Of a stretch of DNA of 38,478 bases, positions 20,549 through 26,393 are shown in pieces (the first letter of the stretch is position 1; each line of letters opens with the position of its first letter). The stretch comes from Candidatus Methylomirabilia bacterium (GTDB lineage: Bacteria > Methylomirabilota > Methylomirabilia > Rokubacteriales > CSP1-6), in the NCBI GenBank assembly GCA_041478145.1, contig JBGOVO010000003.1:1-38478 (forward strand), in the 5' to 3' direction. The translations under genes were made by a program, and so were the position numbers. The notes beneath the pieces were generated by a model. That model worked only from the letters and a program-made list of their open reading frames with translations, ran no database searches and was not told where the DNA came from.

Positions 20549-21421
20549 TTAGAGCAGGCCGGGCACGAAGGCGTCACGCCCCCGCACGTAGGTGGCCTGG
20601 CGCTGGGCCGCGTTGCGATTCACCAGCGGGCGCATGTACATGGGGTGGGTCGCGCACCGAACCTCGTGCTCGAGCTCGGACAGCTGCTTGCCGCTGTCCG
20701 GGTCCACGATCACCTGGAACCGGTACTGGTAGGGATTGCTCTCCTCGGTGACGAGGCCACGCTCCACGAGCCACGCGTGCGGGCCCGAGAAGTCGGCGAT
20801 GTAGATCGCGACGTGGTGGCCATCGTAGGACGCGATCGGGGCGTCCGTCTCCCGGAACACCAGCTCCTGCCGGTAGCCCACGCTCACGTGGGCGGCGGCG
20901 CCCCGGTCGTCCTGGCTCACGGTGGCGGTGGCGGCCAGCGCTCGCTCGTAGAAGCGCGCGATGCCCGCGGCCGCGCCGCGCCCCACCGGCACTTCCACGC
21001 GGCCGATACCGAGCGTGACGTCGCCCCACTCGGGCCCGGGGCCCACGCAGCGGAACTGGTTGCCCCACGGGCACGTCACCGCCACGTGCTTGTCGCGCAC
21101 TTCGTACGCGAACGCGGTGCCCGCGAGCGGCTCGCGCACCGCGGCCAGCCGGCGCGTCAGCGCGTCGAGATCCGGCACCACGAGCTCCACGTGCCCCTGC
21201 ACCACCTGGGGCTTGGCGGTGGGCAGGTGGAACTGGGTCTGCCCCGCGTTCGCCCACATGTTCTCCACGCTCACCATCAGGTAGGGATCGCGCGTCAGCC
21301 CGAGCCCGGCGATGTAGAAGAGCGTGGCCGCCTGCTGATCCGGAACGCGCACGTTGACGTGCTCCAGCAGCAGGACGTTACCGAGGTCTTGTTCCCGCCG
21401 ATCGTAGGTCATCGCCGCCAT
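20549..21421 (-). CDS. VOC/glyoxalase-like two-domain protein
   Basis: LEHVNVRVPD...FY..GLGL, QFHLP, CPWGNQF, FYERAL, HHVAIY; GAGGAGG RBS. Confidence 0.75.
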   Translation of the reverse strand: MAAMTYDRREQDLGNVLLLEHVNVRVPDQQAATLFYIAGLGLTRDPYLMVSVENMWANAGQTQFHLPTAKPQVVQGHVELVVPDLDALTRRLAAVREPLAGTAFAYEVRDKHVAVTCPWGNQFRCVGPGPEWGDVTLGIGRVEVPVGRGAAAGIARFYERALAATATVSQDDRGAAAHVSVGYRQELVFRETDAPIASYDGHHVAIYIADFSGPHAWLVERGLVTEESNPYQYRFQVIVDPDSGKQLSELEHEVRCATHPMYMRPLVNRNAAQRQATYVRGRDAFVPGLL

Positions 21422-21461
21422 GGCCCGGGCCCTCCTCAGCCCCGCGGCCAAGCATACTACC

Positions 21462-21677
21462 TCATCGGCTCACCCGCACTCCTGCATTCTGGCCGACCTG
21501 GGCGTCGCCCTGGGCCAGCCACTGCCCGAGACGGATGAGGCCGGCCCCGAGGCGCGCACCCATTCCGCGACGGCGCGGCCTCGCCGCCGCGAGCGCCGCC
21601 ACCCGCGCGGACTCGGCCCTCAGCTCGGCCAGCCGCACCGCGACCAGCTTCTCCGTGACGTACACGCCCAGGTCCAT
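21462..21677 (-). CDS. Small hypothetical protein (71 aa)
   Basis: AGGAGG RBS before ATG 21677; MDLGVYVTEKLVAVRLAELR...RLGAGLIRLGQWL amphipathic helix. Confidence 0.7.
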   Translation of the reverse strand: MDLGVYVTEKLVAVRLAELRAESARVAALAAARPRRRGMGARLGAGLIRLGQWLAQGDAQVGQNAGVRVSR

Positions 21678-21694
21678 GTCCGGCCTCCTGTTCT

Positions 21695-22099
21695 CTAGGC
21701 CGCCCGGCTGAGCCGACCGGCCGCCCGCGGGGATCCCGTGGCCATCCGCCGGAGCCCCGGCCGCACTGCCTGGGGCACCAGCACCAGCCGGAGCCGCGGT
21801 GGGTCCTGCCGGTCCAGCCGGCGGAAGAGATCGTGCGTGATCCGGGTGATGGCGCCCACGGTGGTCTCGCGCTCGAGGGGCAGCCGCATCGAGACGATCC
21901 ACTCGCGCGACCAGCTCCGCCGCACCACCGGCGCCGCCGCGGCGCCCAGCTCGCGGTGAATGGCGTCGGTCAACGCGATCTGCCGGGCGATGCGCTCCTC
22001 CCGGTAGTCGGCGATCCGCTGGGTCAGCGCGAGCAAGCCCCAAACCGCCAAGAATGGAATCAGCACGATCATGATCGTCGTCTCTATCGCTCCGCTCAT
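21695..22099 (-). CDS. Hypothetical protein with an N-terminal TM helix
   Basis: AGGAGG RBS before ATG 22099; hydrophobic IMIVLIPFLAVWGLLAL. Confidence 0.72.
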   Translation of the reverse strand: MSGAIETTIMIVLIPFLAVWGLLALTQRIADYREERIARQIALTDAIHRELGAAAAPVVRRSWSREWIVSMRLPLERETTVGAITRITHDLFRRLDRQDPPRLRLVLVPQAVRPGLRRMATGSPRAAGRLSRAA

Positions 22100-22138
22100 C
22101 GTGTCGTCCTCCTGTCGTTGTCCCGTGTGCTTCACCGG

Positions 22139-22168
22139 TTGAGACACCGGTGATCACGCGGCGTGAAA
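22139..22168 (-). promoter_or_regulatory. ECF-sigma-type promoter, copy 2 (TTTCAC-N17-GTCTCAA)
   Basis: Same boxes and same spacing as the copy upstream of the ECF sigma gene. Confidence 0.75.
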
Positions 22169-22194
22169 CGACGGGGACGGGCGCGGGCGGGTGG

Positions 22195-23160
22195 CTACGC
22201 GGACAGCGGATGCAGGTCGGGCCGGCAGGTGGTGCAGGGGGCGAACCCGGCGGCCTCCGCGCGCTCGCGCGCGCCGAACAGCGTGAGCGTGGACAGGGGC
22301 TGGGACATCAGCGACCCGCAGGTCGGCAGGCAGTATTCGCGCTCGCCGTTCATGAGCGTGTACATCGCCTCGCGGCGCACCTTGAAGTCGTGGTGCGAGG
22401 CGACGGTCCTCACACCCTCCACCGCGAGCAGCCGCTGCTTGAGATCGACGTGCTTGCCCGCGTAGCCGGTGAGCGCGCCGGTGCTGCCGATCACCCGGTG
22501 GCAGGGAATGACGATGGGCAGCGGATTCCAGCGCAGGGCCTGCGCCACCGGCCGCACCGCGGACGGCGCGCCGATGCGGGCGGCGATGCCCGCGTACGAC
22601 GTGACCGCACCGTACGGCAGCGCCGCGGTGGCCTCGAGCACGCGCCGCTGGAACTCGCTCCGCACCCGGCGCAGGTCGAGCGCCCAGTCGAGCCGCGCGC
22701 GCCGCCCCTCGAGATACTCCATCAGGTCCGCGCGCAGGCCTTCGGTGGCGGCGCGGTCCTCCACCGCGTCCTCGCCGAGCAGGCGGCGGACGTGGGCGGG
22801 CAGAGATCTCATGGCGGGGAGGTACTGCACGAGCGCCACGCCCTGCTCGGAGCGGCCGATGAGCACCGGGCCGAGCGGCGAGGGAAAGATCCCGAAGCCC
22901 ACCATGCGCGAGCGCACGTCGGCCAGGCGCGCCGCGAGCTGGGCCCGTGCCAGCGTCGCGTCGTCGCCGGGGAGCGGCGCGCGCCGCAGCGTGTGCACCA
23001 TGCCGTCGACCGCTCGATAGTGCCCGAGCTCCTCCCGGCAGGGGCGGCACCCGGCCACGTGCCCCTCGACGCGCTCCACGGCGGCCGGGCCGGCCTCCCC
23101 GATGGCCACGGCCAGGAGATGCGGCTCGATCGCTCGGCAGCTAGGAGGCGGCTTGCTCAT
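22195..23160 (-). CDS. zf-HC2 anti-sigma / methylated-DNA-protein-cysteine methyltransferase / Ada Zn-binding fusion protein
   Basis: N-terminal C...HVAGCRPC (ZAS); central SPLGPV, FQRRVL, YGAVTSY, NPLPIVIPCHRV, GYAG (Ogt); C-terminal YCLPTC...AEAAGFAPCTTCRP (Ada Zn). ATGA overlap with the sigma stop. Confidence 0.9.
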   Translation of the reverse strand: MSKPPPSCRAIEPHLLAVAIGEAGPAAVERVEGHVAGCRPCREELGHYRAVDGMVHTLRRAPLPGDDATLARAQLAARLADVRSRMVGFGIFPSPLGPVLIGRSEQGVALVQYLPAMRSLPAHVRRLLGEDAVEDRAATEGLRADLMEYLEGRRARLDWALDLRRVRSEFQRRVLEATAALPYGAVTSYAGIAARIGAPSAVRPVAQALRWNPLPIVIPCHRVIGSTGALTGYAGKHVDLKQRLLAVEGVRTVASHHDFKVRREAMYTLMNGEREYCLPTCGSLMSQPLSTLTLFGARERAEAAGFAPCTTCRPDLHPLSA

Positions 23161-23684
23161 GACTGGGAGTCCGTTCCCGCGGGGAGATGACCGTCGAGGC
23201 CTCGCCGGATCTTCCGGAGCGCCTGGAAGACGTGCGCGCGGGCGCTCTCCTCCGAGCAGCGGAGGCTCGTCCCGATCTCGGGGTAGTCCAGCTCGTGCAG
23301 CTTTCGCATGATGAAGGCCAGTCTCTGCTTCTCGGGCAATCCGTTGACCACCTGTTCGATCCGCGCCCGCGCTTCCTCCGCGATCACCCGCCCGTCGGCC
23401 CGCTCCGGCGCACCCATCGGCATCTCCATCGCCACCGCGGCGTAGGCCCGTCGCCGGCGCGACTGGCCTCGGAAGTGATTGCGGCCCAGGTTCGTGGCGA
23501 TCGTGAACAACCACGCCCGGACATTGGCGCCCGCCGGCAGCGCGCGGTACGCCCTGAACGCGCGGAGGAAGGTCTCCTGCGAGAGATCGTCGGCATCGCT
23601 CGCGCGAGCCGTGATCCGCAGCAGGTAGCGCCGGATCTCCGCGTGATGGGCCCCCACCACCGCCTCGAAGGCATCCTCTGCCAT
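23157..23684 (-). CDS. ECF RNA polymerase sigma factor
   Basis: Region 2 DADDLSQETFLRAF, RAWLFTIATN; region 4 LPEKQRLAF...YPEIG...SARAHVFQALRKIR. Start placed at 23684/23687, downstream of the promoter motif (the ORF extends to 23738). Confidence 0.93.
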   Translation of the reverse strand: MAEDAFEAVVGAHHAEIRRYLLRITARASDADDLSQETFLRAFRAYRALPAGANVRAWLFTIATNLGRNHFRGQSRRRRAYAAVAMEMPMGAPERADGRVIAEEARARIEQVVNGLPEKQRLAFIMRKLHELDYPEIGTSLRCSEESARAHVFQALRKIRRGLDGHLPAGTDSQS

Positions 23685-23695
23685 CACCCTGCCCA

Positions 23696-23725
23696 TTGAG
23701 ACCCCGGACCCCGGCGGCTGTGAAA
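23696..23725 (-). promoter_or_regulatory. ECF-sigma-type promoter, copy 1 (putative autoregulatory; TTTCAC-N17-GTCTCAA)
   Basis: Ends about 10 nt before the sigma start codon; duplicated at 22139-22168. Confidence 0.75.
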
Positions 23726-23742
23726 GGAGCTCGGCCATTCCG

Positions 23743-24735
23743 CTAACCGCGTGCCGGCTCGCGCTTCTTCGGGGCCGAGGCGGCCTGCTGCTCGCGCACG
23801 AAGCGGACCGCCACCACCGTGCTCACGGCCAGGCTCATGGCCAGCGAGACGAGGAGGGTCGCCCCCAGGGTCAGGAGCACCGCGCGCTGGGCCTCGAGGA
23901 TCTGGCGCACCGAGCCCGCGTACACGAGATTGACCCGCACGGTCGGCATGACCGCCTGGGTCACGAGCCATTCGTCCTCGTCGATGGTGACGAGGCCGTC
24001 GGCGTCCCGGAGGGCCAGCTCCTCGACGACCGGATGGCGTTTCCAGTCCTGCTGGGTGAGCTGGCGGGTCCGGCGGTCGAGGAAGATGGCCTGCTTGTCG
24101 CCGTCGATCATCACCAGCCACCCGCCGGGGCCGGCCGCGGCCTGCTCGATGGCCTCGACGGAGGCCTGCAGCCGGATGCTCCCGAGCAGGTACGCGACGA
24201 TCTCCTGCTCCATCCGGATCGGCACCGCCGCCCCGACGATGAAATCGCGAGTGGCCCGGCCGAAGACGACGCCGGAGACGGCGGGGCGCTGGGTGCGGAT
24301 CACCTCCTGCAGGAGCGGCCGGTCCGCATAGCGCAGGTCGAGGTTGGAGCTGCCATCGGGCGCGGTGAGCGGGCTGAAGGCGAGCGGCCGGCCGTCGGGC
24401 GCCACCACGAACAGCGTGGGCATCTGCAGCATCGCCCGCATCGTATCGATCTCGCGCTGGAGCGCGCGCGGCTCGTGGGAGGCCCAGCTCTGAGCCAGGT
24501 GGGCCGCCACCGGCACGAGCGCGTCGAGCCGGTCGCGCACCTGGGAGTCGGCGAGGTGCGCGAGCACGCGCACGATCTCCTGCCGCTGGGCGCGCGCGTC
24601 CGCGAGGGCCTGGGGCTTGAGCCGCATCGTCCACGCCAGCCCCACCACCATGAGGGCCAGGAACGACACCACCGCCCAGGTCGAGAGGAGGAAGAACAGG
24701 TGCGACCAGCGCAGCCCCACCCCCGGCAATCCCAT
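23743..24735 (-). CDS. Cache-domain membrane sensor without a cytoplasmic output domain
   Basis: TM1, LFVVAPDGRPL, YADRPLLQEV, PAVSGVVFGRAT...AAVPI, LVMIDGD, TM2, then only about 17 residues. Confidence 0.78.
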   Translation of the reverse strand: MGLPGVGLRWSHLFFLLSTWAVVSFLALMVVGLAWTMRLKPQALADARAQRQEIVRVLAHLADSQVRDRLDALVPVAAHLAQSWASHEPRALQREIDTMRAMLQMPTLFVVAPDGRPLAFSPLTAPDGSSNLDLRYADRPLLQEVIRTQRPAVSGVVFGRATRDFIVGAAVPIRMEQEIVAYLLGSIRLQASVEAIEQAAAGPGGWLVMIDGDKQAIFLDRRTRQLTQQDWKRHPVVEELALRDADGLVTIDEDEWLVTQAVMPTVRVNLVYAGSVRQILEAQRAVLLTLGATLLVSLAMSLAVSTVVAVRFVREQQAASAPKKREPARG

Positions 24736-24737
24736 AG

Positions 24738-24792
24738 GCGCCCGATGATACCTCGCTTGACAGGGCCACCGCCCCGCCGCATCATCGGGCGC
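24738..24792. promoter_or_regulatory. Divergent promoters framed by a perfect 12-bp inverted repeat
   Basis: GCGCCCGATGAT (24738-49) / ATCATCGGGCGC (24781-92); TTGACA-17-CATCAT on +, TATCAT on -. Confidence 0.55.
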
Positions 24793-24820
24793 GCAGCGTC
24801 CCGTCCCACCTGGAGGAAGC

Positions 24821-25237
24821 ATGGCCGACGGCGTCAAGATCGACACGGTGCGGTCCGGCTCGAGCGGCGTGCTCGGCCGCTCGCTCAACGGCGCGCGCCA
24901 TCAGCACTTCGTGCTCGATTCGCCCTCCGGGCCCAACGAGGCGATCACCAACGGCGAGGCGTTCCTGGCCGGCATCTCGTCCTGCGGCGTCACCCTGATC
25001 GAGAAGCACGCCCACGACACCGGCGTGCCCCTCGCGAGCATGGAGGTGGTGATCGAGGGCGTCCGCAGCGACGCGGCGCCCAATCGCTTCCAGGCCATCA
25101 ACGTGAAGTTCGCGCTGCGCGGCGTGGACCAGGCCCGCGCCGAGGCCCTGGTCGAGACGTGGCGGGAGCGCTGACCCCTCTACCGCACGGTCGCGGTGGC
25201 GACCGACGTGAAAGTGGAAGTCACCGCCGTTCCCTAG
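24821..25237 (+). CDS. OsmC-family peroxiredoxin-like selenoprotein (Sec at TGA 25172-25174)
   Basis: First Cys in AGISSCG. TGA sits exactly where the conserved second Cys (R-C-P) is expected. Readthrough gives PLYRTVAVATDVKVEVTAVP*, completing the fold. Confidence 0.85.
25188..25205 (+). other. Bacterial SECIS-like hairpin
   Basis: CGGTCGC-GGTG-GCGACCG; the G-starting apical loop begins 21 nt after the UGA. Confidence 0.65.
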
Positions 25238-25246
25238 CCCACACCA

Positions 25247-25282
25247 CCCCTTACCCTGCCCTCTCCCCTGAGGGGAGCGGGA
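25247..25282. repeat. REP-like palindromic element
   Basis: CCCCTTACCCTGCCCTCTCCCCTGAGGGGAGCGGGA; related copy at 31260. Confidence 0.75.
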
Positions 25283-25298
25283 TAGCAAGGAGATCGCC

Positions 25299-26393
25299 GT
25301 GAAAGCCGCCGTCCTCTACAAGGCCAATACCCCGCTCGAAGTCGTCGATCTCGTCCAGGAAGGCCCGCGCGGAGGCGAAGCCCGCGTCAAGGTCAAGGCG
25401 GCCGGCATCTGCCACAGCGACTGGCACATCATGAACGGGGACTGGACGCCGCCGCTTCCGATGGTGCTCGGGCACGAGGCGGCCGGCCTGGTCGAGGAGG
25501 TGGGCCCGGGCGTCACCAACGTCAAGCCCGGCGACCACATCATCTTCTCCTTCCGGCCCCACTGCGGCCGCTGCCTCTACTGCTCGATGGGCCGCTCCAT
25601 CCTGTGCGACGGCCACGCCTCGCCGCGCTGGGGCATGCTCGACGGCACCTTCCGGCTCAAGCGGAACGGGCAGGACATCTTCCAGATGGCGCGCATCGGG
25701 ACCTTCTCCGAGCAGGTCGTATGCCCGGCCGAGATGCTGGTGCCCATCCGCAACGAGATGCCGTGGCCGCAGGCGGCCCTGATGGGCTGCTGCGTGCCCA
25801 CCGGGGTCGGCGCGGTCACCCGCTGCGCTCAGGTGGAGGCGGGCGCCTCGGTGCTCGTCATCGGTTGCGGCGGCGTGGGGCTCAACGTGGTGCAGGGCGC
25901 GAAGCTGGCCGGGGCCGGCATCATCGCGGCCGCCGATCTGCTCGACAATAAGCTCGCCTACGCCAAGGACTTCGGCGCGACCCACACCATCAACGCCAAA
26001 TCAGAGAACGTGGTGGACCGCGTGCGCGCGCTGACGCAAGGCCGCGGGGTGGACTACGCCTTCGACGCCATCGGCGGCGAGGCCACCACGCTCCAGATCG
26101 TGGACGCCATCCGGCCCGGCGGCACCGCGGTGATCGTGGGCATGGCCGCGCTCAACGTGCGCGCGCCGATCACCCCCTACAACATGGCGCTCCAGGAGAA
26201 GGTCATCAAGGGCACGATGTACGGCTCGGTGCGCCCGAACATCGACTTCCCGAAGCTGGTGGATCTCTACCTCGAAGGCCGGCTCAAGATCGACGAGCTG
26301 GTGAGCCGCACCTACAAGCTCGACCAGATCAACGAGGGCTTCACCGCGCTGCGCACCGGCCAGGTCGCCCGCGGCGTGGTCGTCTTCAACTGA
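25299..26393 (+). CDS. Zn-dependent alcohol dehydrogenase (class III-like MDR)
   Basis: GICHSD, GHEAAG, CGRCLYC...C, GCGGVG, GQVARGVV. Confidence 0.93.
   Translation: MKAAVLYKANTPLEVVDLVQEGPRGGEARVKVKAAGICHSDWHIMNGDWTPPLPMVLGHEAAGLVEEVGPGVTNVKPGDHIIFSFRPHCGRCLYCSMGRSILCDGHASPRWGMLDGTFRLKRNGQDIFQMARIGTFSEQVVCPAEMLVPIRNEMPWPQAALMGCCVPTGVGAVTRCAQVEAGASVLVIGCGGVGLNVVQGAKLAGAGIIAAADLLDNKLAYAKDFGATHTINAKSENVVDRVRALTQGRGVDYAFDAIGGEATTLQIVDAIRPGGTAVIVGMAALNVRAPITPYNMALQEKVIKGTMYGSVRPNIDFPKLVDLYLEGRLKIDELVSRTYKLDQINEGFTALRTGQVARGVVVFN

Follow-up and report, generated by a model that had tools for sequence, protein, structure and literature searches.

The window analysed here, a stretch of 38,478 nucleotides (nt) from contig JBGOVO010000003.1 of a Candidatus Methylomirabilia bacterium (assembly GCA_041478145.1), carries on its minus strand a gene for an extracytoplasmic function (ECF) sigma factor. 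This gene is followed by one for a fusion protein, which joins a zinc anti-sigma (ZAS)-type N-terminal domain to an MGMT (6-O-methylguanine DNA methyltransferase) domain and an Ada-type Cys4 domain, and then by a gene for a protein of 134 amino acids (aa). A bipartite motif, TTTCAC-N17-GTCTCAA, is present twice on the minus strand, at 23725-23696, just before the sigma gene, and at 22168-22139, between the fusion gene and the gene at 22099; the spacer is 17 nt in each copy. Comparison with related genomes makes it very likely that the ECF sigma factor of 23684-23157 reads this motif, in the broader form TTTCACR-N12-CGGKGTCTCA, as its promoter; it would thereby activate its own operon and would be held in check by the fusion protein. 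The positions of all features are collected in Table 1.

The motif and the start of the sigma gene

The sigma factor consists of regions sigma-2 and sigma-4 only, as in the ECF (group 4) members of the sigma-70 family, with no further domain. Its two regions match Sigma70_r2 with 56 bits and Sigma70_r4_2 with 47.6 bits, and the NCBIfam model for ECF sigma factors, TIGR02937, scores 81.6 against a cut-off of 42.9.

When up to two mismatches are allowed, the window contains two matches to the motif, against a mean of 0.12 in 100 dinucleotide-preserving shuffles, none of which reached two. The repetition of the motif is far beyond chance. The assembly comprises 3,880,878 bases in 463 contigs, with 70.8% G+C and a completeness of 79%. 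Scanned in full with spacers of 16-18 nt, it contains the motif exactly twice; one-mismatch copies are absent, and 24 copies have two mismatches. A first-pass annotation of this DNA had reported the two copies and their identical 17-bp spacer, and both are present on the minus strand where it had placed them. Its boxes TTTCAC and GTCTCA are likewise borne out, but not the final A of its second box: at this seventh position, relatives have A at 0.21, C at 0.24, G at 0.31 and T at 0.24.

The same annotation had placed the start of the sigma gene at 23687/23684 rather than at 23738, and alignment of the relatives agrees, with 23684 as the preferred codon. Homology to all orthologues sets in at the codon that corresponds to ATG 23684, and of the 29 order-level loci, 28 have ATG there (L026 has GTA, and its next codon is GTG). 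Other in-frame codons are kept less well: GTG 23687 is lost in three loci (L013, L014 and L023), and ATG 23696, which overlaps the -10 box, is missing from L005, L007, L010, L017 and L018, among others. A strain variant in a contig from an RNA library, plus-strand C>T at 23694, likewise alters ATG 23696. As judged from these alignments, the true start of the sigma gene is ATG 23684.

If the sigma factor started at ATG 23738, the upstream motif would be part of the coding sequence, or would serve as an internal promoter from which a shorter isoform is made. In this genome, this ATG shares the frame of ATG 23684 with no stop between the two, and an in-frame ATG is found at a similar place in some members of the genus, such as L005 and L007. 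However, it is without a counterpart in about half of the genus; in L002, L003, L004, L009, L011-L014 and L016, the stop codon of the upstream gene and non-coding sequence stand in its place. In addition, homology in all of the loci begins at residue 1 of the 23684 form, ATG 23738 lies 4 nt past the stop of the upstream gene with no Shine-Dalgarno sequence, and conservation falls on the DNA boxes and not on codons. Consequently, we regard the longer form as extremely unlikely.

The distance from the GTCTCA hexamer to ATG 23684 is 12 nt, and no Shine-Dalgarno sequence is present. Because of this spacing and the missing Shine-Dalgarno sequence, the sigma mRNA is predicted to be near-leaderless, as the first-pass annotation had also proposed. 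At the usual distance between a -10 element and the start of transcription, +1 would fall on the conserved A at 23690, giving a leader of 6 nt, AGGGUG. In other Rokubacteria and in other phyla, the sigma start codon mostly lies 3-10 nt past the hexamer; an exception is L090, in which the start lies 18 nt past the hexamer and is accompanied by GAGGAGG. Leaderless or near-leaderless expression is, by these distances, a conserved trait of this promoter family. At several sites (L072, L076, L082, L084, L086, L088 and, in G000, C342:7293-7259 on the minus strand), an ATG in the context GGGCATG is found 5 nt past the -10 hexamer. The arrangement of starts at these sites suggests routine use of truly leaderless mRNAs in the phylum.

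Conservation in relatives and the regulon

Relatives were sought with the fusion protein in 60 genomes, 59 of which gave some MGMT match (a tally that counts G028, which is flagged as unpublished and contributed no locus). Full-length orthologues of the fusion, with E of about 1e-98 or better, are present in most of the 60, and thirty loci were examined. In nearly all thirty, both motif places are occupied (two or fewer mismatches, spacers of 16-18 nt allowed), and the spacer is always 17 nt. When the loci are aligned on the sigma start alone and the motif is ignored, TTTCAC and GGKGTCTCA fall in register; the spacer and the sequence upstream of the -35 box vary freely, both at the sigma promoter and at the site 3' of the fusion gene.

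When species-representative genomes were searched with an alignment of the fusion, 19 further full-length relatives were obtained. Nearly all are labelled Candidatus Methylomirabilota, Rokubacteria or Rokuibacteriota; the exceptions are one Binatia, one Baltobacteraceae and two genomes labelled just "bacterium". All 19 loci have a matrix site just upstream of the sigma gene, and 18 have a second matrix site on the same strand 3' of the fusion gene; in L107, the second match lies on the other strand and upstream. Within these 19 loci, TTTCACR and CGGKGT are nearly invariant and the last four bases of the -10 element drift. A form of the motif is found within 100 nt upstream of the orthologous sigma start in 29/29 loci of the same order and 19/19 further Rokubacteria-type loci, so that its presence upstream of orthologous sigma genes, which the first-pass annotation had proposed to look for, extends to 48/48 Rokubacteria loci. 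The consensus given above was derived from 80 sites of relatives, and it reveals conserved positions beyond the two boxes: an R directly after TTTCAC, and the four bases CGGK before GTCTCA.

Another 61 loci match only the MGMT part of the fusion. An ECF sigma gene lies directly upstream in 17 of them, which are labelled Chloroflexota and Actinomycetota. Each of the 15 distant sigma factors tested finds its best match in the window's own genome in the window's sigma factor, with a clear margin over the paralogues. For these distant loci a loose pattern, [TC][TC]TCAC[AG]-N15-17-GT[CT], was searched within 100 nt upstream of the sigma gene. It is present there in 12/17 loci, as it is before all 29 and all 19 sigma genes of the Rokubacteria loci, and elsewhere in the 17 distant loci it occurs at 0.0076 per 100 nt. 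The lineages have their own forms, such as TCTCACA...GTT in Actinomycetota and TTTCACA-N16-GTTATA in Anaerolineae. Because forms of the motif stand upstream of sigma factors of the same clade in distant loci, the motif evidently travels with the sigma clade across three phyla. One matrix match, in L117 (19.0 bits), falls within the coding sequence of a sigma gene from Chloroflexia and was not counted as a promoter. The counts for the order, the further Rokubacteria and the distant loci (29/29, 19/19 and 12/17) lend support to the claim of the first-pass annotation that the motif is the cognate promoter of this sigma factor.

Another ECF sigma factor could in principle read the promoter, in which case the locus would lie below a cascade and would not be autoregulated. 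Several ECF paralogues are present in the genome (1-11 tblastn matches per distant sigma query), and contig C457 carries a second sigma gene paired with an MGMT/Ada-Zn gene. ECF cascades are known, HrpL being cited as transcriptionally controlled in the excerpt of a 2022 review (PMC8999054). However, the motif accompanies this sigma clade in three phyla, and its place is in every case immediately before the sigma gene. Moreover, the pair on C457 has a different upstream sequence that lacks the TTTCAC box, and none of the four matrix matches described below lies on that contig. Reading by another sigma factor is therefore judged improbable.

The reach of the motif beyond its own locus was assessed in 20 genomes of the genus. 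TTTCAC-N17-GTCTCA has 2-5 matches in each, 68 in total, and the reversed pattern has none in any of the 20. These 68 sites came from a pattern with the spacer fixed at 17 nt; among the first 30 loci, where N16-18 was allowed, the spacer is 17 nt at every site within two mismatches. The two places at the sigma locus account for 39 of the 68 matches. The other 29 each precede an open reading frame (ORF) on the same strand that starts 5-58 nt downstream. In 17 of these 29 cases, this is a gene of 149-153 aa of the DinB superfamily (DUF1706) that overlaps a stand-alone MGMT gene. Six sites lie before the gene for an SRPBCC (Polyketide_cyc2) protein, one lies before an arginase-family gene, and five stand in a leaderless arrangement before an ABM-like protein plus DUF2652 or before DUF2652 alone.

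In the window's own genome, a matrix made without the sites of this genome, using informative columns only and a threshold of 12 bits, gives exactly four matches above 12 bits, and its reversed control gives none. Two are the promoters of the sigma operon (33.3 bits) and of the gene at 22099 (32.5 bits). The third, TCTCAC-N17-GTCTCA (25.6 bits), lies on contig C52 upstream of an operon for a DinB-like protein and MGMT (ogt), and the fourth, TTTCAC-N17-GTCTAC (19.6 bits), is on contig C342, where the ATG of a DUF2652 gene follows it by 5 nt. The first-pass annotation had expected a repair regulon with genes such as alkA, alkB or tag. None of these genes is preceded by any of the 29 extra genus sites or the four own-genome sites, but the link to alkylation repair itself holds, since the motif precedes the DinB-like and ogt operon.

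The arrangement of these sites also bears on whether the boxes might be not a promoter but an operator for a DNA-binding regulator, for example for the Ada-like or MGMT parts of the fusion itself. The fusion does combine an MGMT domain that binds DNA with a zinc domain of the Ada type, and the zinc domain of this kind in E. coli Ada contacts DNA. However, the motif is asymmetric, with a fixed spacer of 17 nt that is not conserved in sequence, and at each of the 68 genus sites it points the same way with respect to the gene that follows. Several start codons lie just 5 nt past the second box, which leaves no room for a separate promoter, and no sigma-70-like promoter was found nearby (21500-24000). 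Furthermore, the fusion has no Pfam match to an AraC-type helix-turn-helix at E <= 0.01. An operator is thus highly unlikely, and a promoter read by the sigma factor of this locus remains the favoured explanation.

The 134-aa protein encoded behind the second copy, P0002, matches no Pfam or NCBIfam family. An AlphaFold model with a mean pLDDT of 80.8 shows a long helix plus a beta-beta-alpha-beta domain; the model has no match in the PDB at E <= 0.001 (the best is 0.037). The Atlas neighbours of the protein are unnamed Methylomirabilota clusters only. The gene follows the second motif in most loci of the genus and in 14/18 further Rokubacteria loci. In L002, L004, L013 and L016, the second motif is followed first by a membrane peptide of 58-62 aa (MEDIV... 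or MDEMV...). In L024, L091 and L093, the gene 3' of the second motif encodes a protein that starts MAKRILVPL..., a start that we take to resemble universal stress proteins.

Upstream of the sigma gene lies a 381-aa ORF (23743-24888) that matches no Pfam or NCBIfam family. Its stop sits at the same place in most loci of the genus, and a contig from an RNA library joins this ORF to the sigma gene. The genes further out, at 20549-21451 on the minus strand and 24821-26393 on the plus strand, are glyoxalase-like (a borderline Pfam match), OsmC-like and a zinc alcohol dehydrogenase. They are of electrophile/oxidant-stress types, and none has the motif upstream. The paralogous pair elsewhere in the genome (G000 contig C457, L170:435-1704, plus strand) consists of a gene for a 180-aa ECF sigma factor that overlaps the gene for a 244-aa protein; the latter has MGMT (LPCHRV) and a C-terminal Ada-type Cys4 motif, with no ZAS N-domain. 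As no TTTCAC box lies upstream of this pair, its promoter is probably a different one.

Table 1. Features at the sigma locus, with their positions in the window
Feature	Position	Strand	Basis or remark
381-aa ORF	23743-24888	-	GC3 (G+C at third codon positions) 0.94, strong coding signal; ends 17 nt before the -35 box
-35 box TTTCAC, sigma promoter	23720..23725	-	conserved in 29/29 order-level and 19/19 further Rokubacteria loci; conserved R next at 23719
Extended -10 CGGGGTCTCA, sigma promoter	23697..23706	-	CGGKGT nearly invariant phylum-wide; last four bases vary outside the genus
Second box GTCTCAA, sigma promoter copy	23702-23696	-	
Predicted transcription start, A	23690	-	seventh nt past the hexamer, conserved YA; inferred from hexamer position and alignment
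ECF sigma factor, 175 aa	23157..23684	-	Pfam Sigma70_r2 and Sigma70_r4_2; NCBIfam sigma70-ECF; start conserved
Likely anti-sigma fusion, 321 aa: ZAS-type N-domain, MGMT, Ada-type Cys4	22195..23160	-	Pfam, NCBIfam, invariant columns, complex model
-35 box TTTCAC, second promoter	22163..22168	-	starts 27 nt past the stop of the fusion gene
Extended -10 CGGTGTCTCA, second promoter	22140..22149	-	predicted start near 22133, leader about 33 nt
Second box GTCTCAA, second copy	22145-22139	-	
Shine-Dalgarno AGGAGG	22108..22113	-	8 nt before ATG 22099; GGAGG-type sites at the same place in orthologues
134-aa protein P0002	21695..22099	-	N-terminal membrane helix and small beta-beta-alpha-beta domain; conserved target of the second promoter

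The fusion protein and related systems

The ATG of the fusion gene, at 23160, overlaps the stop codon of the sigma gene (ATGA). The protein matches DNA_binding_1 (PF01035, MGMT) with 100.1 bits, and the Ada zinc domain PF02805 with 25.3 bits against a cut-off of 23, over profile positions 26-65 of 65, that is, the second half of the profile. Among 28 aligned fusion proteins, three sets of residues are invariant: the ZAS pattern C8, H34-x3-C38-x2-C41; the MGMT active site P219-C220-H221-R222 (the following V223 is nearly so); and the Ada-type residues C277, C281, C309 and C312. The spacing of the last four is one that we take to match the CxxxC...CxxC layout of the methyl-acceptor zinc site of Ada.

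A model of the complex between the sigma factor and residues 1-90 of the fusion reached an ipSAE of 0.80 (median of three runs), against 0.00 for the best control. A mark of that level was reached by 58/80 solved complexes and by 2/110 mismatched pairs. The runs have at least 84% of their contacts in common, the pLDDT of the partner is at least 85, and the modelled contacts fall on sigma-2 (residues 3-44) and sigma-4 (residues 105-168). Since complexes of sigma factors with ZAS proteins have been solved, this result may reflect likeness to them, without proving binding. The MGMT partner is likely to be an anti-sigma factor. The form of the partner changes across the phyla: MGMT alone (~187 aa) in Actinomycetota, ZAS plus MGMT in Chloroflexia and Dehalococcoidia, MGMT plus Ada-Zn in one Acidimicrobiia locus, and ZAS plus MGMT plus Ada-Zn in Rokubacteria.

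The N-terminal part of the fusion recalls SigR-RsrA, a cytoplasmic switch in which a ZAS anti-sigma factor with a C...HxxxCxxC zinc site controls a sigma factor with an autoregulated promoter. The NCBIfam model antisig_RsrA gives a weak match to the fusion (E 0.0015, 18.6 bits against a cut-off of 62.5). As in SigR-RsrA, the anti-sigma gene is predicted to be co-transcribed and translationally coupled with the sigma gene. However, the anti-sigma domain here is fused to two further cysteine-based methyl-acceptor modules, and because of this fusion the expected signal would be alkylation rather than disulphide stress.

The remainder of the protein resembles E. coli Ada, in which a Cys4 zinc module and an MGMT module are combined in one autoregulated regulator whose targets include alkylation repair. 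The NCBIfam model for Ada, PRK15435, covers the MGMT half of the fusion only (90.4 bits against a cut-off of 345). Both proteins unite Cys4 and MGMT modules, and the alkylation-repair target here is ogt plus the DinB-like gene. In contrast to Ada, the fusion has no AraC-type DNA-binding domain, its output would pass through a sigma factor, its Cys4 domain is C-terminal instead of N-terminal, and no alkA or alkB target was found among the sites of this genome and the genus.

Of the described promoters, the one nearest in sequence to the window motif is that of ECF41, given as TGTCACA-n16-CGTC in the excerpted text of Wecke et al. 2012 (PMC3426412). As far as that excerpt goes, both promoters are bipartite and asymmetric, with TCAC(A/G) in the -35 element and GTC in the -10 element; the spacer from TTTCACR to KGTC is 15 nt here and 16 +/- 1 in ECF41. 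Both precede the sigma factor's own operon and serve a very small regulon. Unlike the ECF41 promoter of the excerpt, the -35 element here begins with TTT rather than TGT, a conserved CGG precedes the -10 element, and the sigma mRNA is predicted to be near-leaderless. In addition, ECF41 has a C-terminal extension that is absent from the 175-aa sigma factor of the window, which is therefore not an ECF41 member.

In gene order, the locus resembles ECF122, a group of the 2021 ECF re-classification. In the excerpt of the 2022 review (PMC8999054), 6-O-methylguanine DNA methyltransferases are given as neighbours of this group, no anti-sigma factor is assigned to it, its mechanism is listed as unknown, and a Cellulomonas protein is its example. 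By that description, the two have in common that an MGMT gene comes directly after the ECF sigma gene. The Actinomycetota loci above, with a sigma factor and an MGMT protein of ~187 aa that lacks ZAS, fit the description, and their sigma factors are the closest relatives of the window's sigma factor. Unlike the MGMT of ECF122 as described there, the MGMT of the window is flanked by a ZAS-type domain on its N-terminal side and an Ada-type Cys4 domain on its C-terminal side. In its main text, the 2021 classification paper (PMC7826278) does not mention methylguanine, MGMT, methyltransferases or alkylation, and a literature search for MGMT-fused or alkylation-sensing anti-sigma factors returned nothing beyond the ECF122 entry of the review.

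The proposed circuit

Very probably, the locus combines a promoter of the ordinary autoregulated ECF kind with an unusual sensor. In the proposed mechanism, the sigma factor would be kept inactive by the co-translated fusion, whose N-terminal ZAS domain, according to the complex model, would clamp sigma regions 2 and 4. A release signal would free the sigma factor, which would then read its own operon, providing positive feedback and also replacing the anti-sigma factor. The sigma operon would be transcribed from about 6 nt ahead of ATG 23684 into an mRNA without a ribosome-binding site; in other lineages, this mRNA would have no leader at all. The downstream copy of the promoter would drive the 134-aa membrane-anchored protein from an ordinary leadered mRNA, and the two weaker copies would drive the DinB-like and ogt operon and the leaderless DUF2652 gene.

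Several points weigh against this account. The -35 box lacks the AAC core that is common to many ECF promoters, and the score of the fusion for the Pfam model zf-HC2, 19.1, is below the cut-off of 22.2. Under the loose pattern, 5/17 distant loci are without the motif. The genomes compared are kin, so the counts of conserved loci overstate their independence. Similarly, the information per position in the 80 sites is 1.0-2.6 bits in the boxes and 0.05-0.6 bits in the spacer, and the former range is inflated because 29/80 matrix sites were chosen by the exact pattern. Because the assembly is 79% complete, a regulon of four sites is a lower bound. Finally, a soil metatranscriptome contig of 2,476 nt, 95-99% alike, spans from 22886 through the first promoter into the upstream gene. 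The RNA data are four metatranscriptome runs that contain parts of the window, in the form of assembled contigs only, which are blind to starts, ends and strand; none of these contigs covers 22058-22245. The bridging contig could stem from transcription that reads through from the upstream gene, or from DNA carried over into the library. In the case of read-through, sigma mRNA would have a source besides the motif.

Three cysteine-based methyl or alkyl acceptor sites are combined in a single putative anti-sigma factor, and ogt is among the targets; together these point to alkylation as the signal. We infer that release would follow alkylation of cysteines in the fusion, at MGMT Cys220, at the Ada-type Cys4 site or at the ZAS site. 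More tentatively, and with the balance of our judgement somewhat on the side of doubt, the anti-sigma factor may itself be a consumable alkylation sensor, a sigma-factor version of the Ada response that is stepwise simpler in Chloroflexota and Actinomycetota. Irreversible transfer of a methyl group from damaged DNA to Cys220 and/or the Cys4 site would then inactivate or destabilise the fusion; direct alkylation of the ZAS zinc site is an alternative trigger. The freed sigma factor would have the used-up suicide enzyme made anew from a self-activating mRNA that lacks a leader, and would turn on a second ogt operon.

What lifts this circuit above the ordinary is its clean conservation across phyla, the predicted leaderless sigma mRNA, and a likely anti-sigma factor that is fused to MGMT and Ada-type modules and has an ogt target. 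The analysis supplies a corrected start codon for the sigma gene and a pointer to leaderless translation in Rokubacteria. Since the promoter is short, rare and well defined, the set can be tested in a heterologous host, and it might serve as an orthogonal switch. For the uncultured phylum, the locus would represent a sigma/anti-sigma switch tied to the repair of alkylated DNA. More broadly, it offers a compact, testable regulon and a candidate promoter for an ECF group that is listed with an unknown mechanism in the excerpted review (PMC8999054). If the anti-sigma factor is indeed a consumable sensor of alkylation, this would account for the "unknown mechanism" of the MGMT-linked ECF group.

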